IMG/VR virus record: IMGVR_UViG_2547132278_000006
Strand: one strand, 5' to 3'
Source of the DNA: a virus
Lineage: Duplodnaviria; Heunggongvirae; Uroviricota; Caudoviricetes
Length of the DNA: 24,771 bases
Positions 5,878 to 24,485 of this stretch are shown piece after piece. Position numbers and translations under genes: made by a program. Under the pieces are notes generated by a model that was not told the DNA's origin, ran no database searches, and worked only from the letters and a program-made list of their open reading frames with translations. Position 1 is the stretch's first letter; each line of letters begins with the position of its first letter.

Positions 5878-5955
5878 GTGCGTTTAAACAAGTTGTTATC
5901 TTATGTGTTTAAACAAGGCTTACAAATCAAAGAGAAGGTGGGGATATCCCCCACC
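5878..5955 (-). promoter_or_regulatory. nrdA-nrdB intercistronic element: two 14-bp direct repeats with a palindromic core, plus a GC-rich palindrome just after the nrdA stop
   Basis: TGCGTTTAAACAAG (5879-5892) and TGTGTTTAAACAAG (5904-5917), both containing the palindrome GTTTAAAC; GGTGGGGATATCCCCCACC at 5937-5955 lies 6 nt downstream of the nrdA stop. Confidence 0.35.
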
Positions 5956-5960
5956 ATATG

Positions 5961-8276
5961 TCAGATTTTGCAGGCTCCGTCGCACTCATCTTCTGGCTCG
6001 ACGGCTACAGCTTGCGCCAGTGGATTCTGCGGTTCGTCGTCATCACGCTTTCCTGCACCATCTCTGGTGTTGTGGTAGTAAAGCGTTTTAACTCCCATCT
6101 TGTAGGCGAGAAGCAAATCTGACAGTAGCGTCATCATTGGGACTTTATCGCCTTCAAAGCGAGAAGGGTCATAGTTGGTATTGGCCGAAATAGCCTGGTC
6201 AAAGAACTTCTGGATGATCGCCACCTTTGTCAGATAGCCGCGGTTGTCCGGCATATCCCACAGGTATTCATACTGTTCCTTCAGTTTTTCAAACTCAGGC
6301 ACGACCATCTTGACGATGCCGTCCTTAGAAGATTTCACTGACACCGGGCCACGAGGCGGTTCGATGCCGTTGGTGGAATTAGTGATCTGGCTGGAAGTCT
6401 CGCATGGCATTTGTGCCGTCAGTGTGGAGTTGCGAAGGCCGTATTTTGCAATACGTTCACGCAGTTCTTCCCACGGCATCTTTAACTCAAAGTTTGTTTC
6501 GCCACTTTCGTCTAATGAAGAACGGTAATGGTCGATCGGCAACTGACCAATTGCGTATTTGGTCTGCTCAAACCAGTCACACTCACCTTTTGCTTCGGCA
6601 AGTCGGCAGCTGGCATCAAGAAGGTAATACTGGATAGCTTCGAACGTTTCATGCACCAGTTTATTGCCAGCGGTATCAGAATAACGAACGCCATTCTTTG
6701 CCAGGTAATAAGCAAAGTTGGTTACACCAATTCCCAAGCTACGACGAGCTTTGGCAGGCACTTCGGCTGCCTCCATCGGATAGTCTTGATAATCCAGTAA
6801 CGAATCCAGTGCAGCAACGGCATAGAACGCCACCTCTTTAAGAGACTCCAGTGAACGGATGGCTCCGAGGTTAAAAGCGGATAAAGTGCATAGCGCGATC
6901 TCACCGTTCGGGTCGTCGGTAAATGCCAGTGGACGGGTGGGTAGGGTGATCTCCATACACAGGTTTGACTGGCGGACAGGTGCAAGAGCAGGAATGAAAG
7001 CGCCATGCTCATTAATATGATCGACGTTCGCAATATAAATTCGGCCCGTGGACGCTCGTTCCTGCATCAGAGATGAGAACAGCTCAATGGCAGGTACTGA
7101 CTTCTTGCGAATTGAATCATCGGCTTCGTATTTATGGTACAGCTTTTCAAACAGCTCCTGGTCTGTGAAGAAGGCTTCGTACATATCAGGCACATCATGC
7201 GGGCTGAACAGAGTGATGTTCTCGCTTCTGACGAGTCGACGGTACATTAGACGGTTACTCATGACGCCGTAATCAAGATGGCGAACGCGGTTTTCATCAA
7301 TACCACGGTTATTTTTCACCACCAGCAGACTTTCAACTTCAAGATGCCAGATCGGGTAAAACGCTGTTGCTGCGCCACCACGAACACCACCTTGCGAACA
7401 AGATTTAACAGCCGTCTGGAAATGCTTCAGGAATGGAATAACTCCGGTATGGGTGGCTTCACCATTGCGGATCTCGCTGCCCAGCGCACGGATACGGCCA
7501 AAACCAATACCAATTCCAGCACGACGTGAAACGTAGTCGATAATTGCGGCTGAAGCTGCACTAATCCCTTTCAGACTATCGCCAGACTCAATCAGCACAC
7601 AACTGGAGAACTGACGGGTTGGAGTACGGACGCCGGCCATGATTGGTGTGGGCAGAGACAGTTTGAACGTACTTGTAACGTCATAGAAACCTTTGACCAT
7701 CTCCATACGTGTTTTGCCAGCGCAGTCGTCTTCCCAATTCTGGAACAGACACATGCCTACCAGCATATAGATATGTTGCGGCCCCTCATGAATCTCACCA
7801 GTAACACGGTTTTGAACGAGGTATTTGCTTTGCAACTGCACCGTAGCTGCATAGCCAAAAAGATCGTCACGTTTCGGCTTAATGTAATTGCCGAGTTCTT
7901 CGATCTCTTCAAACGAATAATGTGTCAGCAAATCCTTGTCATAAACGCCCTTGTTAACGTTCTTGACAATGTGTTGGTAGAAGTTCGGATAGTCGTAACG
8001 ACCGAAGGCATCTTTGCGGATTTTAAAAATGTTCAGGCGGGCAGCCACCTGTGAGTAATTTGGTGCTTCTGGTGAGATCAAATCAGCGGCAGATTTAACC
8101 AAAGCCTCATGCAACTGGCTGGTGGTAATCCCATCAAAAATGCTGGCCGCAGCTCCCATTGCTACAGCGGATGCGCTTACACCACGAATGCCTTCTACGC
8201 CATACATTACGACGCGGTTGTATTTTTCTTCGGATAACGGCTCTGTTTGGCCGTTACGTTTTACGATGCTTATCAT
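5961..8276 (-). CDS. nrdA: ribonucleotide reductase class Ia large (alpha) subunit
   Basis: 771 aa; long stretches match recalled E. coli NrdA (YLVQNRVTGEI, LPTPIMAGVRTPTRQFSSCVLIE, CSQGGVRGGAAT, NRVRHLDYG, RQSNLCMEI, C-terminal ...CDGACKI). Confidence 0.95.
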   Translation of the reverse strand: MISIVKRNGQTEPLSEEKYNRVVMYGVEGIRGVSASAVAMGAAASIFDGITTSQLHEALVKSAADLISPEAPNYSQVAARLNIFKIRKDAFGRYDYPNFYQHIVKNVNKGVYDKDLLTHYSFEEIEELGNYIKPKRDDLFGYAATVQLQSKYLVQNRVTGEIHEGPQHIYMLVGMCLFQNWEDDCAGKTRMEMVKGFYDVTSTFKLSLPTPIMAGVRTPTRQFSSCVLIESGDSLKGISAASAAIIDYVSRRAGIGIGFGRIRALGSEIRNGEATHTGVIPFLKHFQTAVKSCSQGGVRGGAATAFYPIWHLEVESLLVVKNNRGIDENRVRHLDYGVMSNRLMYRRLVRSENITLFSPHDVPDMYEAFFTDQELFEKLYHKYEADDSIRKKSVPAIELFSSLMQERASTGRIYIANVDHINEHGAFIPALAPVRQSNLCMEITLPTRPLAFTDDPNGEIALCTLSAFNLGAIRSLESLKEVAFYAVAALDSLLDYQDYPMEAAEVPAKARRSLGIGVTNFAYYLAKNGVRYSDTAGNKLVHETFEAIQYYLLDASCRLAEAKGECDWFEQTKYAIGQLPIDHYRSSLDESGETNFELKMPWEELRERIAKYGLRNSTLTAQMPCETSSQITNSTNGIEPPRGPVSVKSSKDGIVKMVVPEFEKLKEQYEYLWDMPDNRGYLTKVAIIQKFFDQAISANTNYDPSRFEGDKVPMMTLLSDLLLAYKMGVKTLYYHNTRDGAGKRDDDEPQNPLAQAVAVEPEDECDGACKI

Positions 8277-8349
8277 GTATCACCAAATAAAGAGGGCCAC
8301 TAAATATAGTGGCCCATGTTAATAGATAAGCACTTACCTATCAATGAAA

Positions 8350-8919
8350 TCAAATGAGAGACTTAAGAACATCGCGCACCTGGCGGAACTGATCTGTTTG
8401 CATACCGGTATGGATGGCAGCCACCGCATCAGCCAAATGTTCGTTTTTGTTCACGAGAACATCCTGTCCAGATTGCTTACGACGCAGCCACGGTGCTTTA
8501 GGGTGTTTTTTCGTAGCCCACTGGATAATCTCTTCTTTCGATGTAGTAAGTTTATTGCCGACAAAATGCTTGATTTCGTTTGGAGTAACCTGGATCAATG
8601 GCTTATCCACACACGCAAGTACACCGATACAAATACCGTAAGACGTCTGCGAACGAGAGTTTTGGCTCCCAACCGGTAGCTCACAAAAAACCATATTTGC
8701 CTTATCAATGATTGGCTTCGCAACACGCCATATTTCACTGGCTCGGCGCAGATCGTCACTGTTCACACGAACGGTCTTTTTGTTACTCCCCGCTTTAGTC
8801 TCAACAAGAGTAAGGCCGTGAATCTCAAGTTCGTCCGTCTCAAGGTCTAAAGTGCCCACAGCAAGCCCAAAGTTGCTCATTGAGGGATCAACACCAACTA
8901 CGCTGATTTTTTTACTCAT
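8350..8919 (-). CDS. RuvC-like Holliday junction resolvase
   Basis: N-terminal ISVVGVDPSMSNFGLAV (RuvC ILGIDPG...GYGV pattern), mid FCELP (catalytic Glu region), C-terminal LADAVAAIHTG (RuvC DAADALAIAITH pattern). Confidence 0.6.
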   Translation of the reverse strand: MSKKISVVGVDPSMSNFGLAVGTLDLETDELEIHGLTLVETKAGSNKKTVRVNSDDLRRASEIWRVAKPIIDKANMVFCELPVGSQNSRSQTSYGICIGVLACVDKPLIQVTPNEIKHFVGNKLTTSKEEIIQWATKKHPKAPWLRRKQSGQDVLVNKNEHLADAVAAIHTGMQTDQFRQVRDVLKSLI

Positions 8920-8928
8920 ATAGTCTCC

Positions 8929-9672
8929 TTACCATGTTCCCCATATAGGGTTTTCCAATAATCTCGCCTCCAACGAATTGGCTACTATTGCCGTTTGCAA
9001 CGTTGGTTGGGGATAGTTTGCAAAGTCTGAATACTCATTTTCCTGCGTGACACGTTTATCTGCGGCATGTTTAACACCACTTGCTATGAAATGACGCATG
9101 ATGCCCAACAGCCTCCGACTGTCTGCACTATCGTTTGCTAAAACATGAGGGAGCTGAAGTTCGATTTCTACCATTTCTCCATACTTACCAACAAACTGTA
9201 GTTTGTCCGCACTGTACTTTTTATCCCTCCTTTGGATAAGGAAACCAGTAAAAGCATCACCTGGCGATGCCAAACTATCCACCCGCTTATTGGCAAGTCG
9301 AATAAGGTTCGTGAAAGCCATACAGTGATGCGCACCCATTCCCCCAAAGAACCCTTCGCTATTAATGTTAAGATCTTCAGTTTCATGGGATGCAATAAAC
9401 CCAGGCCCGACGTTGGGAAGATATCCCCCCTCAACAAAAGGATTAATCAGGATCGGCGCAATACATCCAGGTGGTAGTGATTTCAAACTTTGCATCAATG
9501 GCGTCTCGGATATTAGACCAAGCAACGCGGCGAATTGTACTCCGTCAATATTGTTGCTGCCCCACAGAATACGTGGAGCCGCACCATTGGAAGTATGCCC
9601 ATTGATCAGTTTTATCGACTGCATCACTGCAAATACCTGCAAAAACTGCGAGCGACTTAATTTAAACGACAT
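8929..9672 (-). CDS. hypothetical protein (247 aa)
   Basis: Intact ORF between the resolvase and Rad50-like genes; its start overlaps the rad50-like stop by 11 nt; no confident motif. Confidence 0.55.
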   Translation of the reverse strand: MSFKLSRSQFLQVFAVMQSIKLINGHTSNGAAPRILWGSNNIDGVQFAALLGLISETPLMQSLKSLPPGCIAPILINPFVEGGYLPNVGPGFIASHETEDLNINSEGFFGGMGAHHCMAFTNLIRLANKRVDSLASPGDAFTGFLIQRRDKKYSADKLQFVGKYGEMVEIELQLPHVLANDSADSRRLLGIMRHFIASGVKHAADKRVTQENEYSDFANYPQPTLQTAIVANSLEARLLENPIWGTW

Positions 9673-11578
9673 AGCTGCGCCCCTCTTTAACTTCCAGCGT
9701 AATAGTTTCCCGGAACCATGACTTCATCTCTTTATGGGAGATAATCAGCACAGTACCTCGCTCGCGAGCTTTGGACTCCAGAATACCCATGAGGCGTTCA
9801 AGACCGGCTGTATCGAGTGCATCGTCAATTTCGTCGCCGATAAACAAATCGATGTTTTTACTCGCCCGGTTGCTAACCAGATCCTGCAATGCCAAAGAAC
9901 ACGCAATGCGAACCTTCCGCTTCTCACCACCAGAGAGGGTCTGGAACGACTTACTTGAACCTTTCTTCTGCACACTAATGTTGAATTTGTCGCGATACTC
10001 ACCTTTTTTAGTGACATCCATCGTCGACCACTCAGCAGTAATATTCCCGTCAGACAACGTATTGAGATACTCGGCAGTGCGTGTATTCAGGAAAGGCGTA
10101 ACAGACGTCAAAATATGAGAACGCACCCCGGCAGGAGAGTAGACCTGACGAGCTTTTTCCAATAGCAACGTTTGTTCCTGAATAGCCTTCAACTCATCTT
10201 TTAAGGACTTGAAGGTAGACTTACTGGATACCAGGTTATCTTCGTGTCTGGCGATAAGAGCAATAAACGGATTAATCTCTTTTGATATACGATCGACCTC
10301 AGTACGAGCACGAGTCACAAGAGACTCAATAGCAACAACCTCCTTCTCACGATGACGCAAAGATGAGAGTTGTTTCGTAAGCTCTTCAATCCGGGCAATG
10401 ATAGCCGTTACATCAGGTGTCGTTTTAACAAGGGCAGACTCAATGCTTAACGCTTTCTCAAGATTCGTTTTGTGTTTAGCCATTGCCTCTGCAAGTGTCT
10501 TCGCCTGACCAATTTCCTGACGTGCTTGTTCAATGAAATTCTCCTTCACCGTTGATAGATCTTCTTCGCAGTAGGCTTTGCCACAAGTAGGGCATGGTGA
10601 TCCCACTTTAGTACCAACCTCTTCTGCTTTGGTCTTAAAATTACGCGCGCGGTTCATTGCATCAGCCTGACTATTTTCTGTAGCTTTGATGCTTGCCCGA
10701 ATATCAGTTATCGCACCACGAACTTTGAGCAACTTGGCGTCATGTTCTTCTTTTGAGGCTAACTTTTTGCGCTCACTTTCGATTGCCTTCTCGGTATCAC
10801 GGATCTGTTCGGGAAGAGTGCGGATCTCAAGTTCAACTTCCGTTAACTCAACTTCGGCACTGGCCAGCCCAGCCAGGGCATCGTCATAACGTTTAGAACG
10901 CTCTTGCTCCCATGATTCAGAGGAGGCTTTCGCTGACTCAATTTCTGACTGTGTTGCCTCAATGGTCGAGATTGTCGACTCCAATTTGGTTTTAACCACA
11001 TCCATACGTGCGGCAGCTGCATTAGCTCGCTCACGAGCAATAGCGTAGGCGCGTGTCAGTCTGTCAACGCCAGCGGCTTCTTCTACGATGGTTTTGAGGT
11101 TTTTGTCGGACATTCCAGGTAAATCTGGCATAGCTTCTTGGCTCGCATAGATGGAAGCCATGAAAACCTCTTTAGATGCACCGATCAGACGCTCGACGAA
11201 CTCTTGCGTCAGCGCATCTTTGCCTTTCGTCATATCGCCGTCTTCACCACGAACGATAAGCCGATTTTTGAACTCTTTGTGTTTACGGTGACGAATGATC
11301 GCATATCTCTTGCCTTCATCCTCGATGGTTACTGCAACACGACAGTTCTTTTCATGGTCGGTAGACAACACATCGTCACCCTTCACACCATGAGCTGTTT
11401 CGCCATAAAGACACCACATCAGGCTATTCATTAGCGTTGACTTTCCAGAGCCATTACTTGATGCGGAACTATCATCACTATTAACACCCTGAATGAGCAC
11501 TAAACCACGCTGATCTAACTCGACCTCCGCGCTGGCGATAGCCATAAAATTCTCAACCTGGAGCTTTAAAAACTTCAT
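9662..11578 (-). CDS. Rad50/SbcC-like recombination ATPase (T4 gp46-like)
   Basis: Walker A NGSGKSTLMNSL, long coiled-coil region, zinc-hook CPTCG, ABC signature LSGGEKRKV, Walker B/D-loop LFIGDEIDDALD. Confidence 0.85.
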   Translation of the reverse strand: MKFLKLQVENFMAIASAEVELDQRGLVLIQGVNSDDSSASSNGSGKSTLMNSLMWCLYGETAHGVKGDDVLSTDHEKNCRVAVTIEDEGKRYAIIRHRKHKEFKNRLIVRGEDGDMTKGKDALTQEFVERLIGASKEVFMASIYASQEAMPDLPGMSDKNLKTIVEEAAGVDRLTRAYAIARERANAAAARMDVVKTKLESTISTIEATQSEIESAKASSESWEQERSKRYDDALAGLASAEVELTEVELEIRTLPEQIRDTEKAIESERKKLASKEEHDAKLLKVRGAITDIRASIKATENSQADAMNRARNFKTKAEEVGTKVGSPCPTCGKAYCEEDLSTVKENFIEQARQEIGQAKTLAEAMAKHKTNLEKALSIESALVKTTPDVTAIIARIEELTKQLSSLRHREKEVVAIESLVTRARTEVDRISKEINPFIALIARHEDNLVSSKSTFKSLKDELKAIQEQTLLLEKARQVYSPAGVRSHILTSVTPFLNTRTAEYLNTLSDGNITAEWSTMDVTKKGEYRDKFNISVQKKGSSKSFQTLSGGEKRKVRIACSLALQDLVSNRASKNIDLFIGDEIDDALDTAGLERLMGILESKARERGTVLIISHKEMKSWFRETITLEVKEGRSYVV

Positions 11579-14113: not shown

Positions 14114-15208
14114 ATGTCCACAAAAAATAAAAAAGGTAAAAATAACAAAGAAGTAGAAGATAACATCGACAACTTTGAAGAAGGTTCCCTTGAATTGTAC
14201 ACAGGGGAACTTGTCCCTAATAGCAACAATACAGTCCAACCAATTGCGTTGATGCGACTGGGGTTGTTCGTCCCCACGCTTAAGGGAACAAAATACAGTA
14301 AACGTAACAAGCCAAATGAGATCGATGCTTCAAAGGAGCTTGTCCAGCTCGAAGTAGCCCGTTCTGAAGGCTATTCCGATATCAAGATAACCGGTCCTCG
14401 TCTCGACATGGATCATGATTTCAAAACGTGGGTGGGCGTTGTGCGTTCGCTGGCAGAATACGGCGAACCTAACGGTCGTGTCGAGTTAAGCATCACGAAA
14501 TTTGCTAAGTTTTGTGGCTATCCATCGTCACAGATCCGCAAAACACTCCGCGACCGGCTTACAAACAGTCTTTTGAAGATCATGCGTACAACTCTGTCTT
14601 TCCAGAGAACGTATGAAGAAAAGAACGTCGACGGCTCTAACAAGATCTCGCTTCTGATGGTGCACCTCATCAATAGCGTGGACTACAACGAGCAGAAAGA
14701 TACGGTGGTGTTCTATGCAGAACCGAAGCTGGCCGAACTATATCGCTTTGACCATAAGGTTCTTTTGCAGTTAAAGGTTATCAATAAGCTACCACGCAAA
14801 GAAACAGCACAGGCTCTGTACACCTTCATCGAAAGTCTTCCAACCAAGCCTGCGCCGGTATCGCTTGCTCGATTGCGTGCGCGACTCAATTTGAGTAGCA
14901 GGAATGTAAGCTCGCAGAATCAGACTATACGTAACGGCTTAAAAGCTCTCCAAGATTTGGGCTATCTCGAATACAGCGAGATTAAGCGAGGGCGGTCGAT
15001 CTATATCCAGATTCACAGCCGTAATCCAAAACTTAAAGTCGCACCGCCAAAACCTGAAGACATCGAACCCAAAAAACCAGATGAGAAAGCCGGGGAAATT
15101 GATGCTAAACAGAACATTATCAACAAGATAACTGAACTTTCGCAGAATTTGACGCCTGAAAATATCAAGATGATTGAGATCCTTTCCAATAGTCTCAAAC
15201 TGCTTTGA
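14114..15208 (+). CDS. repA: iteron-binding replication initiator (RepA-like), 365 aa
   Basis: The only substantial plus-strand gene; flanked upstream by 5 iterons and downstream by 12. Start taken at ATG 14114 (MSTKNKKGK...); the ORF track's 5' extension to 13994 runs through the iterons. Assignment is mainly contextual (P1/F-type organisation). Confidence 0.7.
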   Translation: MSTKNKKGKNNKEVEDNIDNFEEGSLELYTGELVPNSNNTVQPIALMRLGLFVPTLKGTKYSKRNKPNEIDASKELVQLEVARSEGYSDIKITGPRLDMDHDFKTWVGVVRSLAEYGEPNGRVELSITKFAKFCGYPSSQIRKTLRDRLTNSLLKIMRTTLSFQRTYEEKNVDGSNKISLLMVHLINSVDYNEQKDTVVFYAEPKLAELYRFDHKVLLQLKVINKLPRKETAQALYTFIESLPTKPAPVSLARLRARLNLSSRNVSSQNQTIRNGLKALQDLGYLEYSEIKRGRSIYIQIHSRNPKLKVAPPKPEDIEPKKPDEKAGEIDAKQNIINKITELSQNLTPENIKMIEILSNSLKLL

Positions 15209-15740
15209 TATGCTGTCAGCGGTGAAATGTATGCTATCAGCGGCTATTTTTCTGAAATGTATGCTGTGAACGGTTAAAGATATGCTACCAGCGGTATAGT
15301 GAGATGAACGTATGCTGTGAGCGGTAAATCATCTATCACCACTCAATGCTCTGTCATACCTCCCCAGTGGTTACTAACCTCGAAGAGTGCATTCCATATA
15401 GGTTTGCGCTCACTAACATTCTATTGCTATTGCGCTGATTGCTTGTAGTGAAAGGCATTTATTGCCTGCTGCTCCCTGATAGAACGTATGCTGTCAGCGG
15501 TGTTTTATTGAGGAATTTTTGTTTGGATATGCTATCAGCGGTAATTAATGGTATATGTCAGACCTTCGTATGCTGCCAGCGGTAATTTTGTTCTGGTTAT
15601 ACCCATACCGGTACACATTATTCATGCAATGTCTTAAGTATGCTGCCAGCGGTAAAAAATCGAGTAAAGTATGCTGTGAGCGGTGATATAGACTCTCGAT
15701 ATGCTATCAGCGGTAGTTGATTGTGTATGCTGTCAGCGGT
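15209..15740 (+). repeat. incA-like copy-control array: 12 direct iterons of the same 16-bp unit
   Basis: Units start at 15209, 15230, 15260, 15281, 15311, 15486, 15527, 15568, 15638, 15669, 15699 and 15725, all same orientation; most spacings are about 21, 30-31 or 41 bp (roughly 2, 3 and 4 helical turns), with 26 and 70 bp as exceptions; 0-3 mismatches to consensus; a 160-bp iteron-free spacer at 15327-15485. Confidence 0.8.
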
Positions 15741-15757
15741 GACGACTATGAAATATG

Positions 15758-15780
15758 ACTGCGGAACGAGCCGCAGTCAG
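15758..15780. terminator. stem-loop (GACTGCGG-AACGAG-CCGCAGTC) at the end of the iteron array
   Basis: 8-bp perfect inverted repeat followed on the plus strand by TTTGCATTT; lies between the iterons and the convergent CDS 15788..16000. Confidence 0.35.
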
Positions 15781-15787
15781 TTTGCAT

Positions 15788-16000
15788 TTAGTGTATTTTC
15801 TTTAACAGACCCCAAAGTGTTCCGGCTTTTGTAGTCAGTTTTCCTGTTTCTGGATCGTACATACGCCATTCACGCCGCTGGTGGACGATATACCCATCTT
15901 CACGTTCCAGACGCTCAAGAATGCCAGGCTGCTTGAAACCCTTAGCACGCCAGTAGCCGCTTGTTTTCTCGATTTCCAGACCTGCCAGTGTTAATGCCAT
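15788..16000 (-). CDS. hypothetical small protein (70 aa)
   Basis: ORF whose start overlaps the upstream gene's stop (ATGA at 16000); no motif. Confidence 0.5.
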   Translation of the reverse strand: MALTLAGLEIEKTSGYWRAKGFKQPGILERLEREDGYIVHQRREWRMYDPETGKLTTKAGTLWGLLKKIH

Positions 16001-16335
16001 TACCCAACCTCCTTGCAGTCATCGAAAAGGTAGCTTTGCTGAGAAGCGTGAACGCCATAAAAGCCCTTGTATTTGTTGTATACGAAGTGGTCTTCTCCGA
16101 CGCCGGTTAATTTGCCATTACGATTTGTGAGATATGGGGATGACAACACTCGATCGTCACGCACAATATAGAACTGGTCGCCGCTGTCTACGACCATCGC
16201 TCCATATGGTGCTTTTATGACGTCGGTAAGAGCGCCATTCTTAACGTCGGCTACAGACATTTCACACTGATAAACAGTGGTGTCGGCCACAACGATCGAA
16301 GAAAGAAACAACAGCGCGAATGGGATGGTCTTCAT
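16000..16335 (-). CDS. small secreted protein with N-terminal signal peptide (111 aa)
   Basis: MKTIPFALLFLSSIVVADTT has n/h/c-region character; two Cys (mature N-terminus and C-terminus) could form a disulfide. Confidence 0.6.
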   Translation of the reverse strand: MKTIPFALLFLSSIVVADTTVYQCEMSVADVKNGALTDVIKAPYGAMVVDSGDQFYIVRDDRVLSSPYLTNRNGKLTGVGEDHFVYNKYKGFYGVHASQQSYLFDDCKEVG

Positions 16336-16511
16336 GCTGCCACCTCTTTGATTACATCAAATGCTGAATTAAATACGAGCACGATAGCCAAAGCGTTTAT
16401 GACTACGTCGTGCACCGGGGAAAAGACTTTACGAATGACACCAGTGAAAATGCAGTCGATGACAAAAGCTATTGAAACGATGAGTAACAAGTATTCAATA
16501 AAAATCTTCAT
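16332..16511 (-). CDS. small hydrophobic membrane protein (59 aa), not in the supplied ORF track
   Basis: Hand translation: MKIFIEYLLLIVSIAFVIDCIFTGVIRKVFSPVHDVVINALAIVLVFNSAFDVIKEVAA; two hydrophobic segments; its stop overlaps the next gene's ATG (ATGA at 16332-16335). No obvious SD. Confidence 0.4.
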   Translation of the reverse strand: MKIFIEYLLLIVSIAFVIDCIFTGVIRKVFSPVHDVVINALAIVLVFNSAFDVIKEVAA

Positions 16512-16550
16512 GATAGGTAGATACTAACTTATATAAACTTTACTGTAAAC

Positions 16551-16826
16551 TCACTCAAAAGTGCTGATGCTTAAAATACGCTCAAGATGTTCAGCATCTT
16601 CATTACTGATTTGTTGAGTCTCTTCTACGTACCAACAGTTGCCGTTATGCCAACAAACACCATCATCATCAACCATCACTGAATCAGCGTCATGACCTGT
16701 ATATTCAACAAGAGTACGCTGGATCAGCGTGTCAGTTTCTTCATCGTTAAGGCCATCGACTTTGACCATAAAAAGCGGAAACACGTCATAGACAGTGCTG
16801 GTAACGATTCGAACTAAAACTCTCAT
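16551..16826 (-). CDS. small strongly acidic protein (91 aa)
   Basis: About 18 Asp/Glu against about 5 basic residues; preceded by the conserved ACCACAAAAGGAAAAACAC-ATG initiation cassette. Confidence 0.6.
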   Translation of the reverse strand: MRVLVRIVTSTVYDVFPLFMVKVDGLNDEETDTLIQRTLVEYTGHDADSVMVDDDGVCWHNGNCWYVEETQQISNEDAEHLERILSISTFE

Positions 16827-16881
16827 GTGTTTTTCCTTTTGTGGTTAGTGTTTACTTATTTTGTTAGTTATGAATAGGCGA

Positions 16882-17307
16882 TCAATCTTCTTGGTTAGGG
16901 AAAAACTGTTCAATAACTCTGTCAACGGCTGTGTCTATATGGAGTAGATGCCACACAACCATATCTTTGCTTCCCATGCCTTGTGTGAATATCACGTCAT
17001 ACTTACGCCATGCGCAGTGGAACCAATATGCTGAGTCATCAATTGGTAAATCCTCTCCCGCCTCTTTGAAGTATTTCAGCAGCATTGCCTGCTCTGCCGT
17101 TGGCGTTGGACCTATTTCCTGAGCGTACATACGGATGAATCGCTGCCAGTCTGTCTCGTCGGGGGTTGGATCTGGTGGGGTCATTTCTGCGATAGCGTTT
17201 CGTAGCTGATGCGCCCAATCAGGTTCAGGAAAGCCTTTTGCTACTTCATCATCAATAACATCCAGAGCCACGTTTGCGGCATCGTAGAGTTTCTTAATAA
17301 CTGTCAT
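16882..17307 (-). CDS. hypothetical acidic protein (141 aa)
   Basis: Intact ORF rich in Asp/Glu and Pro; no motif recognised. Confidence 0.55.
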   Translation of the reverse strand: MTVIKKLYDAANVALDVIDDEVAKGFPEPDWAHQLRNAIAEMTPPDPTPDETDWQRFIRMYAQEIGPTPTAEQAMLLKYFKEAGEDLPIDDSAYWFHCAWRKYDVIFTQGMGSKDMVVWHLLHIDTAVDRVIEQFFPNQED

Positions 17308-17356
17308 GTTTTCTTAGCCTTTTAAACAAATTGTTTTCTTAATAAGATAATTGCGA

Positions 17357-17384
17357 TAAAAAAGGCGTCCAACTGGACGCCTGA
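17357..17384 (-). terminator. rho-independent terminator
   Basis: Minus strand: AGGCGTCC-AGTT-GGACGCCT followed by TTTTTTATC; 15 nt downstream of the SPFH gene stop. Confidence 0.6.
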
Positions 17385-17398
17385 ACTTTTAAGGGGAG

Positions 17399-18229
17399 TT
17401 ATTTCACTGTAATGAAAGGAGTGTTAGCCCCTTGAGTCATGTACTGCGGTAACTGGCCATTCCATTTATTGATGGCTTCCAGCTCCATAACGTTCGGGTT
17501 TTGACGCAGAGCTTCACCGCGCAGACGAATGGCGTCTGCTTCTGCTTGCGCACGAGCACGGATAGCATCAGCTTCACCATTAGCCTGTTCACGTAGCATA
17601 TTCGCCTCAGCTTTACGCTGTTCAACTTCCTGCTGGCGTTGCAGAGTACGCTGGTTAGCCGTTACTTTGGCGTTGATAGATTCAATGACGGTTTTTGGGT
17701 AATCAGGCTTTCCAACCCATGACAGGCTCAGTACCTCAATACCAACCGGAGACATCTCTTTCTGAATGTCTTTCAGTGCGTTGTCCAGCAATTGCGCCTT
17801 ACCACCGTCGATAAATGAGTCAGTGGTCATACGGCTGGCCAAACGGTTTAGAGAGTCGGCAATTTTCTGACGCAGATCTGATTCGGTGATATCGTCTACG
17901 CCTTTGCGATAGGTCTGGAACACCGTCGTTACCTTGTCACGATTAACCAGATACGCAACGCCAATTTTGTGACCAATAGCAGTACCGTCACTCATCTGGA
18001 ATGTGAACGGCTCGTCGTAGGTCTTCATTTGTTTGAAGGTCGGGAATACGTAAAGTTCGGTGTTAAGACCTGTCCATTGGCGACCAACGCCAACCACTTC
18101 ACCGATCCCTTTGTCTTCACCTAATTTGTTTACTTTGATGCCAACGTATCCAGGCTCCACGCGATCACAGCCAGTAAGACCCATTGTGCAAATAGCCGCC
18201 AGAGCAACTGCAAGTAAACCTTTCTTCAT
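17399..18229 (-). CDS. SPFH/band-7 (prohibitin/HflC-like) lipoprotein
   Basis: Signal peptide with lipobox MKKGLLAVALAAICTMGLTGC; SPFH-like core and an Ala/Glu/Arg/Gln-rich coiled-coil tail (QRQQEVEQRKAEANMLREQANGEADAIRARAQAEADAIRLRGEAL) typical of HflK/C-type proteins. Confidence 0.75.
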   Translation of the reverse strand: MKKGLLAVALAAICTMGLTGCDRVEPGYVGIKVNKLGEDKGIGEVVGVGRQWTGLNTELYVFPTFKQMKTYDEPFTFQMSDGTAIGHKIGVAYLVNRDKVTTVFQTYRKGVDDITESDLRQKIADSLNRLASRMTTDSFIDGGKAQLLDNALKDIQKEMSPVGIEVLSLSWVGKPDYPKTVIESINAKVTANQRTLQRQQEVEQRKAEANMLREQANGEADAIRARAQAEADAIRLRGEALRQNPNVMELEAINKWNGQLPQYMTQGANTPFITVK

Positions 18230-18232
18230 TAC

Positions 18233-18433
18233 TTATTTCCCCTTTGCTTTGATTAATGAGTTGATAAACTTACGACCAGCAATAAGACCGATTACAGGAG
18301 CACCAAAACCAACGATAACTCCAAACATGACGGCTAAATCACTCTTGGTAGAAATCAGCGACGGAACCAGTAAACCGTAGATGAGAGCCACTGAAACGCC
18401 TGTGGCTACTGCCAATAGATAGATTTTGATCAT
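18233..18433 (-). CDS. small two-TM membrane protein (66 aa), cotranscribed upstream partner of the SPFH lipoprotein
   Basis: Two hydrophobic helices; stop 3 nt before the SPFH start; conserved initiation cassette (CCACATAGGAAAACAC-ATG) upstream. Confidence 0.6.
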   Translation of the reverse strand: MIKIYLLAVATGVSVALIYGLLVPSLISTKSDLAVMFGVIVGFGAPVIGLIAGRKFINSLIKAKGK

Positions 18434-18462
18434 GTGTTTTCCTATGTGGTTGTTATGCGAAA

Positions 18463-18491
18463 ATAATAAGTAAGTACTTATATATTTTCAA
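18463..18491 (-). promoter_or_regulatory. sigma70-like promoter for the small-TM/SPFH operon
   Basis: Minus strand TTGAAA-N17-TATTAT (5/6 and 5/6 to consensus), about 30 nt upstream of the ATG at 18433; the spacer holds the near-palindrome ATATATAAGTACTTACT. Confidence 0.45.
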
Positions 18492-18492
18492 G

Positions 18493-18522
18493 AGATAAAA
18501 AAGGCGTCCTGTGGACGCCTTG
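18493..18522 (-). terminator. rho-independent terminator
   Basis: Minus strand: AGGCGTCC-ACA-GGACGCCT followed by TTTTTTATC; 4 nt downstream of the recA-like stop; same stem sequence as the terminator at 17357. Confidence 0.6.
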
Positions 18523-18525
18523 TGT

Positions 18526-19599
18526 TTACTCTTCTACTGACTCGGTGGGGTTGTCTTTTGCTCTTCGGTCGTCGATTGCCTGCAAAGCCGCAATGATTTC
18601 AGCCAGTGGCTTCTCCCGATACATCTCGACGATCTGCGATTTGGTGTATTTCTTGTCACCAATTTCAACTCGCCCGCTGGCGTTCTTTGGCAGGTATCCT
18701 TCTTCCAGCATGTACTCGACGAGCGATTCGATAACGTCGAGGCCACGAGTAGGATCGAAGTAGAATTTCCAGGTGCATTTGCCATACGGTGGTGCAACTT
18801 TGTTTTTGATGCATTCTGCGCCTACGTCCTGGCCGATCTTCTCTTTACCATCCTTCATCACCGATGCACCAAGACGGATACGTACAGAAGCGTAGAACTT
18901 CGGTGAATCTCCACCTGGCGACGTAGTAGGGTCGCCAAACATTACACCGATTTTTGTGCGAACCTGATTCAAGAAGATGATGCAGGCGTTGTATTTGCGT
19001 GCCCACAAAGCCAGAGTAGGGAAGTTCGCACTTGTCGCACGAGCCAGTGCCGTATTGTCGTTCATGTTTAGCTGATCTTTGTCTTTGGCAGTGCCTTCAG
19101 CCATCTTTTCGAACTTCTCGGCTTTGGAGTTCGGAACCATAGACGCAAGTGAGTCAGCCACGATACAGATAGGTGCTGATTCAGGGATAAGCTCTTCATC
19201 ACGTACCAATTTAAGTATTGTGCCGATCAACTCTACAGAGTCTTCGAAGGTGTCAGGCTGCTTGTATACCCACTGACCGTCATCCTCATCTGCGTTCAGG
19301 CCATTGGCTACAGCCAGGCCAACGTCAAAACTGTTTTCATGATCGAGGAATACCGCCAGACCATCTTGTTTTTGAGCGGAGATCATCGCTGCTGTTGCAA
19401 GGAACGTTTTCCCTGCACTTGGAGGACCGAATACTTCGACGATACGACCACATGGGAAGCCGCCATCGTAACGACCAGAAATAGCTTTGTTTAACGGTGG
19501 AAAGCCTGTATCAATCCAATGAGTTACTTTCTGAATTTCGTCGTTGCTACCGATTTTCTTTTTCAGAGCAAGTGCCAGTGCGGATTTTCCTTTTGCCAT
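18526..19599 (-). CDS. recA: RecA-family recombinase
   Basis: Walker A GRIVEVFGPPSAGKTFLA; FLNQVRTKIGVMFGDPTTSPGGDSPKFYASVRIRLG is near-identical in pattern to recalled E. coli RecA ([36 protein letters not shown]). Confidence 0.9.
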   Translation of the reverse strand: MAKGKSALALALKKKIGSNDEIQKVTHWIDTGFPPLNKAISGRYDGGFPCGRIVEVFGPPSAGKTFLATAAMISAQKQDGLAVFLDHENSFDVGLAVANGLNADEDDGQWVYKQPDTFEDSVELIGTILKLVRDEELIPESAPICIVADSLASMVPNSKAEKFEKMAEGTAKDKDQLNMNDNTALARATSANFPTLALWARKYNACIIFLNQVRTKIGVMFGDPTTSPGGDSPKFYASVRIRLGASVMKDGKEKIGQDVGAECIKNKVAPPYGKCTWKFYFDPTRGLDVIESLVEYMLEEGYLPKNASGRVEIGDKKYTKSQIVEMYREKPLAEIIAALQAIDDRRAKDNPTESVEE

Positions 19600-19601
19600 G
19601 A

Positions 19602-19874
19602 TCAGGCTCCTTTTGTTTCGTTGATTCGTTTTAAAGCGGCGGATTCATCGAATACAATCGCATCGTGGTTAAGGAGTCTGGATACACGAGCGAGGATTTT
19701 TACGACCTGCTCGCTGACTAATCCAAACTCGCGATCTGTCGCTTTCATTCCGGCAGCGCCTAGAATTGACGGCAGTGCGATGACAGCGTACTCACCGTGA
19801 TAAAAGACAATCTCTTTTGCCAGTTGGGCAGGGGTGGTTGTAGCGCCATTGATAATCGATTTAAGCATTAGCAA
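19602..19874 (-). CDS. hypothetical protein (90 aa)
   Basis: ORF between the FEN and recA-like genes, overlapping the FEN 3' end by 7 nt; no motif. Confidence 0.45.
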   Translation of the reverse strand: MLMLKSIINGATTTPAQLAKEIVFYHGEYAVIALPSILGAAGMKATDREFGLVSEQVVKILARVSRLLNHDAIVFDESAALKRINETKGA

Positions 19875-20812
19875 TACCTTTCGAATGGAAGAACAAACAC
19901 TTCAAGGTCTTCAAGGAACGAACGGAAATTCAGCTCGTAGCACAGTTGCTCGAATGCTTTCACGTCACGATTGCCTTTGATTGTTTCGATTTCGGTAGGC
20001 GGAAACTTCGTCTCAATCAGGTTCATTAGCGTGATGTTTCTCTTGAACGCTTCGAGCATTCGACAGCCTGTTTTCTCGTTGAAGGCATTCTTCGCTAGTT
20101 TGTTGAAGGCGGTCTTATGGCGTCCTTTGTCAACCACGATTGAGCCGTCGTTGATGCCGCGTACCATCGTTGCGACACTTCCCCATTCATGCAGCAGCTC
20201 TTTCGCACCGCCAGCACCAATGCCACCAACACCGCTAATATTGTCCGATTTATCGCCTTGTAATGCTTTTGCTTCCAAAAATGCGCGAGGAGTAGCGAAT
20301 CCTGTCAGCTCCGCAAATTGCTCAAAATTAACCTGCTTGTTTTTGGCGTCTTCGCGCAGGCTTACCCAGCTTACGTTTTCGCGAACTAACTGAAGCCAGT
20401 CGCTATCGCCTGTTAACAGATAGATGTGTTCAACGATTGGCTGCGGTGCAATGCTGGCTACCAGCAGCCCGGCCAGATCATCCGCTTCTGCATCTTTTGC
20501 AATGAGTTGGGTAACTCCAAGCGCGGTCATCATTTTGAGGATGTATGGCTTCTGGATAGCAAAGCCTTCCTTCATCTTTTTCATATCAGGATCGTCGTCG
20601 CGATTTGCTTTGTAGTCCGGGTAAAAGTCGCGACGCTTGTCACTAAATCCATCCCAAAGAATCATAGGTCGGGCATGGAGGATGGAGGCATAACGACGGA
20701 CGTTCTTAACAAAGCCGAAAGCAGCCTGTACTTCCATTTCGCCGTTGTGCAATTTGTCAGATTGTTGGTGGTAATAACCCAGGCTATTGCCATCTACGAA
20801 GAGATAATTCAC
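19868..20812 (-). CDS. flap endonuclease / 5'-3' exonuclease (T5 D15 / T4 RNase H family)
   Basis: YLFVDGNSLGY, AKDAEADDLAGLL, TGDSDWLQLV and H3TH-like GDKSDNISGVGGIGAGGAKELL. Start is uncertain: the ORF track starts at GTG 20863, but that places a strong terminator hairpin inside codons 2-9; GTG at 20812 follows the hairpin and has GGAAGGAA upstream, so it is preferred here. Confidence 0.85.
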   Translation of the reverse strand: MNYLFVDGNSLGYYHQQSDKLHNGEMEVQAAFGFVKNVRRYASILHARPMILWDGFSDKRRDFYPDYKANRDDDPDMKKMKEGFAIQKPYILKMMTALGVTQLIAKDAEADDLAGLLVASIAPQPIVEHIYLLTGDSDWLQLVRENVSWVSLREDAKNKQVNFEQFAELTGFATPRAFLEAKALQGDKSDNISGVGGIGAGGAKELLHEWGSVATMVRGINDGSIVVDKGRHKTAFNKLAKNAFNEKTGCRMLEAFKRNITLMNLIETKFPPTEIETIKGNRDVKAFEQLCYELNFRSFLEDLEVFVLPFERYC

Positions 20813-21901: not shown

Positions 21902-22018
21902 GTGTTTCTCCTTGTTGTGATTTGGCCGATGGCGCTATGCGCGTTGGGCTTTCGTTCATTCGTGGCTCTTTCGAGCTGTTAAATGATAGATCAGTACTTA
22001 CTTATTATCTATCAAAAA

Positions 22019-22450
22019 TCAACGGGGAGTAATAAAGCGTTCAGAGCCTAATCGCTCTAATTCAACGATGGCCATCTTTGACGCCTGAACGATCATGTCT
22101 CGGCGATGCGAAAAGGCGGCGACAGCATGTTTGTATATGTCTGCGATGTGCCGTGCTTCATCCAACTTCTGCCTTTTAGACAGATACTGTGGGTTTGTTT
22201 TAACCTTAGCGTCCAGTACAGATTCGTTGAACTTAATGCCGTTCATACTCAAGTTCTTACGCTCTGTGTCGTATAGCTTTGCTTCAACAGCTTCAAGGTT
22301 AAGTTTTGCCTCTGCGACACTTCTTTCTGCATGAGCGAGTTTTGAGCCATACTCCATTAAAAGGCGGGGTTGTCTACGCCAGACTTCCTCCAGATTGTCT
22401 CGGTCAAACTCGAGATCAGACATTATTTTCTCGTAAATATCGGTGATCAT
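22019..22450 (-). CDS. hypothetical protein, possibly UvsY-like recombination mediator
   Basis: 143 aa (T4 UvsY is 137 aa); LLMEYGSKLA...AEAKLNLEAVEAKLYD loosely parallels recalled UvsY LYSKWL...AQKKVALKARLDYY; sits next to the gp32-like gene in a RecA/Mre11/Rad50 context. Functional call is weak. Confidence 0.45.
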   Translation of the reverse strand: MITDIYEKIMSDLEFDRDNLEEVWRRQPRLLMEYGSKLAHAERSVAEAKLNLEAVEAKLYDTERKNLSMNGIKFNESVLDAKVKTNPQYLSKRQKLDEARHIADIYKHAVAAFSHRRDMIVQASKMAIVELERLGSERFITPR

Positions 22451-22482
22451 GTGCTTTCCTTTTTACTTATCATCTTATATTG

Positions 22483-22520
22483 ATTATATCATTGTGATGA
22501 TAAGGCAAGGAGTTCGAGGA
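22483..22520 (-). promoter_or_regulatory. candidate promoter with extended -10 (TGATATAAT) upstream of the UvsY-like gene
   Basis: Minus strand TTGCCT-N14-TATAAT with TG at -15/-14; -10 hexamer at 22483-22488, about 30 nt upstream of the ATG at 22450. Confidence 0.4.
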
Positions 22521-22544
22521 TAGGGGATATGAGGGGATAAGAGA

Positions 22545-22569
22545 AAACATGGCCATAGAGGCCATGTTT
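22545..22569 (-). terminator. stem-loop downstream of the polymerase gene
   Basis: AAACATGGCC-ATAGA-GGCCATGTTT, a 10-bp perfect stem 7 nt after the polymerase stop; the 3' tract is only moderately T-rich. Confidence 0.4.
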
Positions 22570-22575
22570 ATGGGA

Positions 22576-24485
22576 TCACGACTTAATAGTTTCTGCTACG
22601 TCGGCTAATATCGCTTCTAGTCGTTCTCCCTCTTCAGGTCTGAAGTAAAGAATGTTGGGGTTAAACCCGTAAAAGACAGTAACGTCAAGGTCTGGAAGAT
22701 ACTCCTTCCTGCCGACCAAATCGGATGGCTTGTTTTTGTTGTTAAACAATGCCGTTGCCCGGCTGCCACACGTCAGCACATAGGTCGGACGCACCAGATT
22801 GATCTCTTCACGTATAAAGTCGGTGAACTGGCCGATCTCGTCTTTGGTGTAGTCTTTTTCTTTGTCTTTAACCTTCTTGCAAACGCCTGTGACATAGAGA
22901 TCGCCCATGCGTAAATCTCCAGCCGTCAATAGCTTGGCCTTAAAGTCGTCGTATCCGTTCTCCATAAAGTAACCGGTTCGAGCATCATTGCCGTTCGCAT
23001 TGTCCAGAATGATCATGATTTTCGGCTTAATACCAATGCTGGGGCGGATTAGTTCATCACCTAAGCCCATTTCAGCCGCCATCCGCGTCATGAGTACGTT
23101 AATTTCAGCCGAACGTTTGGGGTTCATCTCAAACGGACGTGAGGCTTTAACTGCGTCTATGACAAGGTTTCCCATCAATTCAGCCTGGTCGCGTAGGCGC
23201 TCTGGATCAGTTGCTGGCAGACTGCCTGGCTCGATGGATGCAAACGCCCCTACTTTTTGCAGCGATTCGCGCACTCGACTATTACAGGCACGTTTCTCGA
23301 CAGCTTCTTCGAATTGCGCCAGTGACTCGAATTTGCCGCCAACTTTTTCTCGCGCTCTCATGATGGCTTGGCAGCCATTCTCAGAACACCCCTTCACAGC
23401 AGAGAAGGGCGCATACAGCACCTGGCTGCCATCTTCAAGCGTGCGGATCTCGATTCGGTTAGATGACACGTTAACGTCTGGTGGCAATACGCGAATGCCA
23501 TAGGTCAGCGCATCTTTAACCAGCCCCTGGTGTTTATCTTCGCCAAGAATAGTGAGAGCAGCAGCGAAAAACTCTGCGGGATAATGAGTTTTCAACCACA
23601 TAGATTGATAACTGATTAAGGAGTAAGCAACAGAGTGTGATTTGTTGAACTGGTAGGCACCATTCTTTTCGAATGCGGTCCAGATCTCCTTCGCTTTCAT
23701 CTCTGATAGCCCTGGATGTGACGCTGTAACGCGTACTGCGTTTATAGGTAGTTTTGCGCCGTACTCAAGTGCCTCTTCGACAGTTTTCAGAGTTCCGTCT
23801 TCGCATTTAAAATGTTCCGCACGGTGAATGCGCTGTGTAGTGCCATCTTCCAGCTCAACGTCTATCCAGCCAGCTTGAGCCTGAACGATGAACTTCTCGC
23901 CCATGCTCTTCATTTTTTCCATGTCTTTTTTGCCGATCGCTTTACGAACGCCGTCAGCTTCAGCCATTGTGAAGCCAGCAAGCAATCGAGTCGCGTTCAT
24001 CGTCTGTTCCTGATAGAGAATCACGCCATTTGTTTCTGCGGTAAGTTCATCAAGAACGGGGTGTAATGATTCCGGCGTCATAAAGCCTTTGGCTACAGAA
24101 ACATAGTCATCCAACATGCCTGACTGAATTGGCCCCGGCCGGAAGAGCGCAGTCGTAGCAACAACCGTTTTAAAGCTCATTGGCTCAATTCCACCACCTA
24201 AATCTTTAAGCAGCTTGCGCATTGGGCCTGATTCAAGCTGGAAAACACCTTGAGTGTACCCAGCAGCAAAACCATCCAGCACCTTGCGATCTTCAAGAGA
24301 AATGGCATCAAGATTGATATCTTCACCTGTGTTCTCTTTTATGTAGCGTTTTGCACTATCGAGCAAATCGAGAGTTGCCAGGCCAAGCACGTCCAGCTTA
24401 ATTAGGCCCATAGCCTCGCAGTAACGCTTGTCAAATGCGATACAACGCGCGTCACCACGGCGCTCAACCGGTGTACGTTCTGTCA
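22576..24485 (-). CDS. dnaE: DnaE-type (Pol III alpha-like, family C) DNA polymerase, 5'-truncated at the IS junction; C-terminal uracil-DNA-glycosylase-family-4-like domain
   Basis: IAFDKRYCEAMGLIKLDVLGL, GVFQLESGPM, ALFRPGPIQSGM, GVILYQEQ and FNKSHSVAYSLISYQSMWLKTHYPAEFFAAALT match the E. coli DnaE palm/fingers from about residue 530 onward; the first ~500 residues are missing. The ORF-track 'start' at 24513 lies inside the IS terminal repeat (IS end at 24486), so the first 9 codons are IS-derived. Confidence 0.75.

Follow-up and report, generated by a model that had tools for sequence, protein, structure and literature searches.

Organisation of the cassette

The 24,771-nucleotide stretch of viral DNA analysed here (the window; IMG/VR record IMGVR_UViG_2547132278_000006) carries, directly downstream of recA, a compact two-gene cassette that encodes a 66-residue membrane protein and a 276-residue lipoprotein with an SPFH/Band-7 domain. 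The window belongs to an SSU5-like phage-plasmid, with 99% identity to Escherichia phage CMS-2020a and 94-95% identity to Cyrano and PhiR41_1, phage-plasmids of ~108 kb. All genes around the cassette lie on the minus strand and make up a replication/recombination array (ribonucleotide reductase, ThyA, RuvC, SbcCD, Rep initiator, RecA, a 5'-3' exonuclease, a gp32-like single-stranded DNA-binding protein, UvsY and DNA polymerase III alpha). Read along this strand, the order is recA terminator (T1), promoter, 66-residue gene, 276-residue gene, second terminator (T2) and DUF7238 (Table 1). The stop codon of the 66-residue gene is separated by 3 bases from the ATG of the SPFH gene, whose ribosome-binding site is situated within the 66-residue gene. 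Judged by its sequence, the cassette is an operon of two translationally coupled genes, with a promoter of its own and a copy of the same terminator on either side. An earlier note on this DNA had described just such a promoter, pair of genes and flanking terminators, set in a replication/recombination array; all of these elements were found, on the minus strand, and the array is indeed a one-strand array. A scan of positions 15000-20000 against Rfam at E <= 1 gave no match.

Table 1. Positions of the cassette features and of the adjoining genes in the window.
Feature	Position	Strand	Remarks
Sigma-70-type promoter, TTGAAA-N17-TATTAT	18491..18463	-	10/12 consensus matches
10-bp palindrome TAAGTACTTA in promoter spacer	18471..18480	.	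belongs to candidate phage-wide promoter/operator motif
Small partner gene, 66 aa, two hydrophobic helices	18433..18233	-	PHROG 1130
SPFH/Band-7 lipoprotein gene, 276 aa	18229..17399	-	Pfam Band_7, lipobox
T1, intrinsic terminator after recA, left cassette boundary	18521..18501	-	9-bp stem, 6 GC pairs, T-run
T2, intrinsic terminator after SPFH gene, right cassette boundary	17382..17363	-	hairpin and T-run
Repeat-to-repeat span (right repeat first base to left repeat last base)	17355..18509	.	copies 1139 bp apart
recA	18526-19599, end at 18526	-	357 aa
DUF7238, next gene downstream	start 17307	-	

A bounded and optional unit at a cargo hotspot

The limits of the cassette were examined in the window and in its relatives, i.e. 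80 viral contigs encoding a RecA >= 92% identical, for which the neighbouring genes were mapped. The terminators proposed in the earlier note are borne out on both sides, with folding energies of -17.1 kcal/mol for T1 (z -6.4) and -15.7 kcal/mol for T2 (z -5.05), none of 200 shuffled sequences being as stable in either case, and with a compensatory stem change (GGCGCCC/GGGCGCC) in the terminator of one relative. Every relative keeps the terminator after recA, with or without the cassette. T1 and T2 have the repeat GGACGCCTTTTTTATC in common, and an exact 16-base repeat, GATAAAAAAGGCGTCC, occurs in both (17355-17370 and 18494-18509). One relative (L069), in which recA is 100% and DUF7238 99% identical to the window, lacks the cassette, and here the recA stop codon is followed by a single terminator in which the T1 loop is joined to the T2 right flank. 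This exact empty site defines the cassette as the 1139 bp lying between two copies of GATAAAAAAGGCGTCC, an insertion/deletion unit that contains the promoter, the two genes and one copy of the terminator.

The cassette is not universally conserved in syntenic position, being intact in 41 of the 80 relatives, truncated or partial in ~7 and absent from 32, and different cargo, which the earlier note had suggested looking for, was found in the same place. Four relatives (L023, L024, L073 and L082, at about 7550-11550) carry Type I hsdM/hsdS genes in place of the 3' portion of the SPFH gene, so that 63 aa of its product remain; a Type III res/mod restriction-modification pair occupies the site in L075 (7184-12324), and a 530-aa protein matching the candidate defence family HEC-07 does so in L061 (5013-6605). 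Further cargo comprises NinX, an Api92-like three-gene block and a 77-aa open reading frame. The site that immediately follows the recA terminator is a hotspot for cargo. Cassette DNA is matched by ~7% of complete E. coli genomes.

Two other variable features of the array were seen. Between uvsY and the DNA polymerase III alpha gene, Cyrano (51112-51960) has a HicA/HicB toxin-antitoxin at a second variable site, where the window has only a ~125-bp gap (22450-22576). The window RecA (357 aa) has no intein, whilst that of Cyrano (CYRAN_55) and of ~19 related contigs (among L065-L083) is 779-780 aa long, owing to a ~422-aa insert in the P-loop (GPPSAGK|C...HN|T) that matches Intein_splicing and LAGLIDADG_3.

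Promoter and a recurrent palindromic motif

The TTGAAA-N17-TATTAT promoter is the top-scoring of 11 promoter-like sites in 6 kb; since such hexamer pairs are not enriched overall (11 found, 9.7 expected in shuffled sequence), the hexamer match alone proves little. Across 27 distinct upstream sequences of relatives, however, the -35 block CTTGAAAAT is unchanged whilst adjacent bases differ, and the ribosome-binding site AGGAAAACACATG is likewise unchanged, which upholds the promoter as it was originally described.

Near-copies of the spacer palindrome TAAGTACTTA, with similar flanks (..ataag-TAAGTACTTA-cTTATcat), lie upstream of nrdA and ssb, so that the window holds the motif at 8327-8336 and 21991-22000 as well as in the cassette promoter. 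The genome of Cyrano (OV696614, L168-L170) has 13 TAAGTACTTA sites where 2.3 are expected, of which 11 are intergenic although intergenic sequence makes up only 13% of the genome (P = 1.3e-8); these include sites upstream of thyX, tail genes and the tail fibre gene, and one between a putative repressor gene and CYRAN_46. The motif looks like a candidate phage-wide promoter or operator element, and from its recurrence at phage promoters the cassette promoter is constructed like the phage's own. That the palindrome signals strictly lytic expression was considered and dropped as a firm claim, as the genes downstream of the motif respond unevenly in macrophages (see below). A separate conserved near-palindrome, AAGAAAACAAWTTGKTT, stands between the terminator and DUF7238 (17324-17340 in the window) in every relative, whether the cassette is there or not, and the window has a second copy at 5886-5902, upstream of the ribonucleotide reductase small-subunit gene; it may be another regulatory site.

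The SPFH lipoprotein

The product of the second gene matches Pfam PF01145 (Band_7) over residues 23-209 with 106.2 bits against a cut-off of 23.6 (E = 2.6e-30). Its N-terminus consists of a signal peptide, MKKGLLAVALAAICTMGLTG-C21-D22, with the lipobox L-T-G-C21 and Asp22 at the +2 position, and Cys-Asp-Arg is found at this point in 95 of 101 lipobox-bearing enteric homologues. Asp at +2 is an established inner-membrane retention signal in E. coli, and we infer that the lipoprotein is held by it on the periplasmic face of the inner membrane. In an AlphaFold2 monomer model (mean predicted local distance difference test score 80.7), the SPFH domain (21-176) is followed by a ~65-residue wall helix (179-243), which would correspond to the coiled-coil tail of the earlier note, and then by a short helix. 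The C-terminus is modelled at low confidence and carries the invariant motif KWNGxLPxYxTxGxxxPF, a combination that would agree with a cap taking shape only when the protein assembles.

Comparison of this model with known structures using Foldseek returned full-length matches, all at probability 1.00, to prohibitin, HflK/C, erlin, stomatin, flotillin and QmcA (E 1e-14 to 1e-8) and also to major vault protein. A single-sequence search of solved structures yielded a weak HflK match only; with a family profile, which was needed here, the sequences of prohibitin, HflC, QmcA and HflK were reached at 1e-6 to 4e-3. Model and fold search together thus place the lipoprotein in the SPFH/Band-7 superfamily, with the predicted parts of its cage-forming members. 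The labels 'serine protease' and 'transposase' that some homologues bear were rejected, as domain searches find no such domain. The protein was likewise rejected as an HflK/HflC orthologue, because its equivalog scores are far too low (30.2 against a cut-off of 134.4 for TIGR01932, and 18.7 against 159.4 for TIGR01933), its anchor is a lipid and it has no paired paralogue.

The 66-residue partner and the pairing

The first gene encodes the two-helix protein that had been claimed: two hydrophobic helices, joined by a conserved turn (L-V-P-x-L-I-S-x-K-S/D, of which P-x-(L/M)-(I/V)-S is the invariant part), and a C-terminal tail with five basic residues. Variation falls at lipid-facing helix positions and the turn is invariant. 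We infer a hairpin with both termini inside and the turn facing the periplasm, with which the charge distribution of the protein agrees. No Pfam or NCBIfam family was matched at E <= 0.01. Identity as an NfeD protein was rejected, since the partner lacks the NfeD C-terminal OB-fold domain and has no Pfam match.

Word-indexed searches with the 66-residue protein reached only close E. coli relatives; a purpose-built hidden Markov model reached further. In a scan of viral contigs using a diverse SPFH alignment, which covered the 80 closest loci, the partner family stands directly upstream of the SPFH gene in 80 of 80, with gaps of -4, +3 and -20. Given this scope, co-occurrence in distant phages rests on the fusions described below and on a few genomes checked by hand, i.e. 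phiP27 (an unannotated 62-aa partner open reading frame), P88 (gp11), the N4-like KpCHEMY26 (in which the two genes overlap by 4 nt), PVP-SE1 (gp115), Pseudomonas phage TL (gp10) and a Kaistia prophage.

About 17 of 143 full-length representatives are single polypeptides comprising partner, linker, lipobox and SPFH domain, with three hydrophobic segments, and 13 of these match the partner model. Such natural fusions are strong evidence that the partner and the SPFH protein work together. They bear on topology also, for the third hydrophobic segment must recross the membrane, as would be expected if the hairpin has its two ends within the cell and the SPFH domain lies beyond the cytoplasm. An AlphaFold2 model of one fusion (P0021) has three helices followed by the SPFH domain, and is not informative as to hairpin-SPFH contacts. 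One further sequence, P0278 (344 aa), has a partner-like hairpin fused at the SPFH C-terminus, the opposite order to that of the other fusions; this arrangement would invert the hairpin, and could be a read-through or frameshift artefact.

Distribution among phages

Both proteins belong to families that are already catalogued, the lipoprotein matching PHROG 200 ('lipoprotein') at 3e-108 and the partner PHROG 1130 ('membrane protein') at 9.3e-26. Translated matches to the lipoprotein occur in 413 phage records, amongst them those of virulent N4-like, rV5/PVP-SE1-like and LUZ24-like phages, and also of phiEa21-4-like phages, phiCbK, Lak megaphages and a crAss-like phage, and the family extends over phages of Proteobacteria, Bacteroidota and Bacillus. 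An exhaustive search gave 902 clusters at E <= 1e-10, nearly all full-length (~280 aa); among the 143 full-length representatives, a lipobox-like motif is present in 113 and the C-terminal W-[DN]-G..P motif in 124.

In P88 the two genes are found, on the same strand, in the interval from cox to replication gene A; in phiP27 and a Shigella lambdoid prophage they occupy the interval bounded by the repressor region and xis-int, and in N4-like, PVP-SE1 and TL phages their neighbours are early or DNA-metabolism genes. These placements point to a use of the pair in the lytic cycle, either in addition to its use in the lysogen or in place of it.

The fold matches and the lambdoid position raise the question of whether the pair might act as a mimic of HflK/C, i.e. 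as a periplasmic cage engaging FtsH or another inner-membrane protease or client and altering membrane-protein turnover, with possible effects upon lysis-lysogeny decisions or phage-protein stability. The closest solved relatives do include HflC, HflK and prohibitins, which are partners of AAA proteases, and the predicted placement on the periplasmic side of the inner membrane is that of HflK/C. The interval between repressor and xis-int is the leftward early operon, where lambda keeps the FtsH inhibitor cIII. We nevertheless regard this explanation as improbable: the equivalog scores reported above fall far under the HflC and HflK cut-offs, the protein has a lipid anchor in place of a transmembrane one and is encoded by a single gene rather than as a K/C pair, and no ftsH-related neighbour appears in any context examined.

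Expression in Cyrano

Conditions under which the cassette is transcribed can be gauged from Cyrano, for which Misson et al. reanalysed RNA sequencing of E. coli LF82 carrying this phage-plasmid (PMC9928086, S1 Table; values are log2(fpkm+5), where fpkm is fragments per kilobase per million). In stationary LB culture CYRAN_56 and CYRAN_57, the cassette genes, are at background (2.32/2.32 and 4.30/3.02, respectively), and neither is amongst the 13 Cyrano genes that the authors term morons (PMC9928086). After 6 h in THP1 macrophages the two rise to 7.61/7.70 and 7.25/7.42, respectively, whilst RecA (4.06/4.05) and DUF7238 (4.20/3.94) stay near the floor in the same samples (PMC9928086). A rise of both cassette genes while their neighbours remain flat indicates an independent transcription unit that is conditional rather than constitutive, and lends support to the description of the cassette as self-contained.

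Other Cyrano genes are also induced in macrophages, patchily: the major capsid protein gene (MCP), a tail gene, CYRAN_46 and CYRAN_60-62 (PMC9928086). The last three have counterparts in the window downstream of the cassette (16000-16511), encoding a 59-aa two-helix membrane protein, a 111-aa signal-peptide protein and a Cra-like gene product; in Cyrano they are at the floor in LB and at log2 8.3-9.0 in macrophages. It is possible that the cassette belongs to a group of several envelope-directed genes that are turned on at the same time.

Induction in macrophages also recalls lysogenic-conversion virulence factors, and the lipoprotein might in principle be exposed at the surface or on vesicles and act on the animal host. 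There is a possible precedent in PM0222 of Pasteurella multocida, a prophage-encoded, HflK/C-like protein for which release in vesicles, TLR1/2 signalling and attenuation upon its deletion are reported (PMC9872710). The family is, however, common in virulent phages of environmental bacteria, and Asp at +2 predicts retention at the inner membrane rather than surface exposure; we consider a virulence role very improbable.

Age, selection and the moron question

In composition the cassette (G+C fraction 0.45-0.49) equals its flanks. Substitution rates, obtained by comparing the window with diverged cassette-bearing relatives, give a synonymous divergence (dS) of 1.3-3.4 for the SPFH gene, comparable to 1.6-2.0 for recA, and a ratio of nonsynonymous to synonymous divergence (dN/dS) of 0.01-0.06 for the SPFH gene, 0.02-0.08 for recA and 0.13-0.23 for the 66-residue partner gene. 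Both cassette genes are real and under purifying selection. As the dS of the SPFH gene equals that of recA, the cassette is an old resident, which has diverged along with the backbone and has later been lost or overwritten repeatedly.

In three relatives (L022, L065 and L072) the recA and SPFH genes have 98-100% identity with those of the window, whilst the partner protein has just 73-74%. The partner gene of L022 has a dS of 0.63 compared with 0.13-0.18 for neighbouring genes, which suggests a local allele replacement confined to the small gene.

These data modify the earlier proposal that the cassette has the layout of a classic moron. What stands is the self-contained unit: the cassette has its own promoter and terminator, is transcribed independently and is present or absent as a block, i.e. 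it is autonomous and dispensable at a variable site. What does not stand is the picture of a recent foreign import, and the cassette is not a classic moron. The composition is typical of the phage, the dS is that of recA, and the promoter carries a motif common to the phage's own promoters. As to expression from the repressed prophage the picture is mixed: the cassette falls outside the 13 Cyrano genes expressed in LB-grown lysogens, and is induced in macrophages. Both in prophages (P2-like and lambdoid) and in virulent phages (N4-like, rV5-like and LUZ24-like), the same pair has early or DNA-metabolism genes as its neighbours.

Function

The reading that we favour, as a leading candidate rather than a probable one, is that the pair forms a periplasm-facing cage at the inner membrane, with the hairpin as an integral subunit, and that this cage serves to preserve or remodel the inner membrane of the cell in which the phage resides. 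The first gene would supply a 66-residue hairpin with cytoplasmic ends and its conserved turn in the periplasm, and the second a lipoprotein kept at the periplasmic face of the inner membrane by Asp+2; constant adjacency and natural fusions suggest that the two would work jointly, plausibly in equimolar amounts. On the pattern of HflK/C-FtsH and QmcA-YbbJ, oligomers of the lipoprotein might form a closed dome over an inner-membrane patch holding the hairpins, and might thereby fence inner-membrane components in or out. The benefit would be that the inner membrane of the occupied cell is kept intact and energised, both under envelope stress in the lysogen and in lytic growth, and on such a membrane-protection reading the cassette would have no nucleic-acid target. 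For the SSU5-like phage-plasmid the cassette is an accessory of long standing that can be dispensed with; in ordinary culture it is silent, and its expression is conditional. A general role of this kind is favoured by the breadth of the family (413 phage records including virulent phages, and 902 clusters) and by a dN/dS for the SPFH gene similar to that of recA. The 'envelope remodelling' that was among the suggestions of the earlier note fits the predicted anatomy.

Several points weigh against this membrane-protection role. Cage formation, lipidation, placement at the inner membrane and binding of the partner are all predictions, and the Asp+2 retention signal may be weakened by the Arg at +3. 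That the site is a hotspot for defence systems speaks for a role in defence, and absence from 40% of close relatives implies that the cassette is not needed for the phage life cycle. The patchy induction of other Cyrano genes may mean that the macrophage signal is partial derepression and not a stress response. A 2026 paper regards it as unexplained that phages should carry this gene (PMC13239085), and the searched literature, including that on superinfection exclusion and anti-phage topics, contained no functional study of this lipoprotein subfamily.

Superinfection exclusion or another envelope-level defence, in which cage and hairpin would block the entry of competitor DNA or trigger membrane collapse on infection, is possible but on the whole unlikely; it would resemble T4 Imm/Sp or P22 SieA by role and not by sequence. 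Much about the locus is in keeping with it. The site in relatives holds Type I and Type III restriction-modification systems and HEC-07, the cassette is dispensable and polymorphic for presence, it has its own promoter and terminator, and its predicted location at the periplasmic side of the inner membrane is the point at which phage DNA enters. In virulent phages the pair sits among early or DNA-metabolism genes, and the partner evolves faster than the SPFH gene, with the local allele replacement in L022; the partner's variation, however, lies at lipid-facing helix positions whilst the turn is invariant. Neither protein matched any PADLOC-DB v2 model even at E <= 1 (a PADLOC scan of DUF7238 also gave no match), and the PHROG labels read only 'lipoprotein' and 'membrane protein'. 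Conservation as strong and as broad as this (dN/dS 0.01-0.06 in the SPFH gene, and hosts ranging over Proteobacteria, Bacteroidota and Bacillus) is unusual for exclusion genes, and the cassette is silent in LB-grown lysogens, where an exclusion gene would be expected to be on.

A further reading goes beyond these. The pair would then constitute a periplasmic SPFH cage peculiar to phages, in which the hairpin is a dedicated subunit; virulent and temperate phages alike would seal or reorganise with it the inner membrane of the cell that they occupy, and it would perhaps serve as a general barrier to the entry of competitors' DNA or as a shield against abortive-infection systems that collapse the membrane; taken as a whole, this is a speculative proposal that we think rather unlikely to hold in full. 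A role in lysis timing was ranked low, the holin, endolysin and spanin genes lying ~30 kb away in Cyrano.

Comparison with known systems

SPFH proteins are found throughout life, and whilst structures of their cages have been solved recently, their roles in bacteria are debated. The cassette is real, cleanly bounded and optional, and is part of a widespread phage module already present in database annotation; its anatomy is well supported, and the benefit proposed for the phage is putative. It differs from known systems of SPFH protein and small partner in the lipoprotein anchor, the predicted periplasmic orientation and a partner unrelated to NfeD.

HflK/HflC of E. coli, which form a cage around FtsH (PDB 7VHP, 7WI3, 9CZ2), have in common with the cassette lipoprotein the SPFH domain, the long wall helix and a C-terminal cap segment; the structural matches are full-length, and the lipoprotein is likewise predicted to face the periplasm from the inner membrane. 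Unlike HflK/HflC, which have an N-terminal transmembrane helix, the lipoprotein has a lipid anchor, and a single SPFH gene with a 66-residue hairpin partner takes the place of the K/C pair.

SPFH-NfeD pairs show a similar operon logic, and some also occur as fusions. In these operons (QmcA-YbbJ, PDB 8Z5G; YqiK-YqiJ; PH1511-PH1510) a small membrane-protein gene stands beside the SPFH gene, as in the cassette, and the structure of QmcA is a fold match to the cassette lipoprotein. The cassette partner, however, lacks the NfeD OB-fold domain. QmcA faces the cytoplasm, whereas the cassette lipoprotein is predicted to be periplasmic.

The nearest counterparts are the PHROG 200/1130 pairs of other phages (phiP27 L05, P88 gp12/gp11, PVP-SE1 gp117/gp115 and the 'SPFH serine protease' of KpCHEMY26), which have the same families, gene order and coupling. 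Elsewhere, however, such pairs lie inside longer same-strand gene runs, whereas the cassette has its own promoter and duplicated terminators. T4 Imm/Sp, P22 SieA and HK97 gp15 are small inner-membrane or periplasm-facing accessory proteins of virulent and temperate phages. The cassette resembles them in its accessory placement and predicted location; by Pfam and PHROG its proteins have no sequence or fold relationship to them.

A subfamily of SPFH phage lipoproteins thus travels with a specific two-helix partner, to which it is sometimes fused, and in SSU5-like phage-plasmids the cassette is optional and sharply delimited, with restriction systems at the same site in other members. The defined two-gene construct, the natural presence/absence pairs and the culturable strain LF82 with Cyrano provide a basis for studying a viral SPFH cage. 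Were the DNA-entry barrier or the abortive-infection shield to prove true, no viral SPFH protein would have been given a function before it, and a phage SPFH cage with its hairpin, if it exists as proposed, would define a non-NfeD class of SPFH partner.

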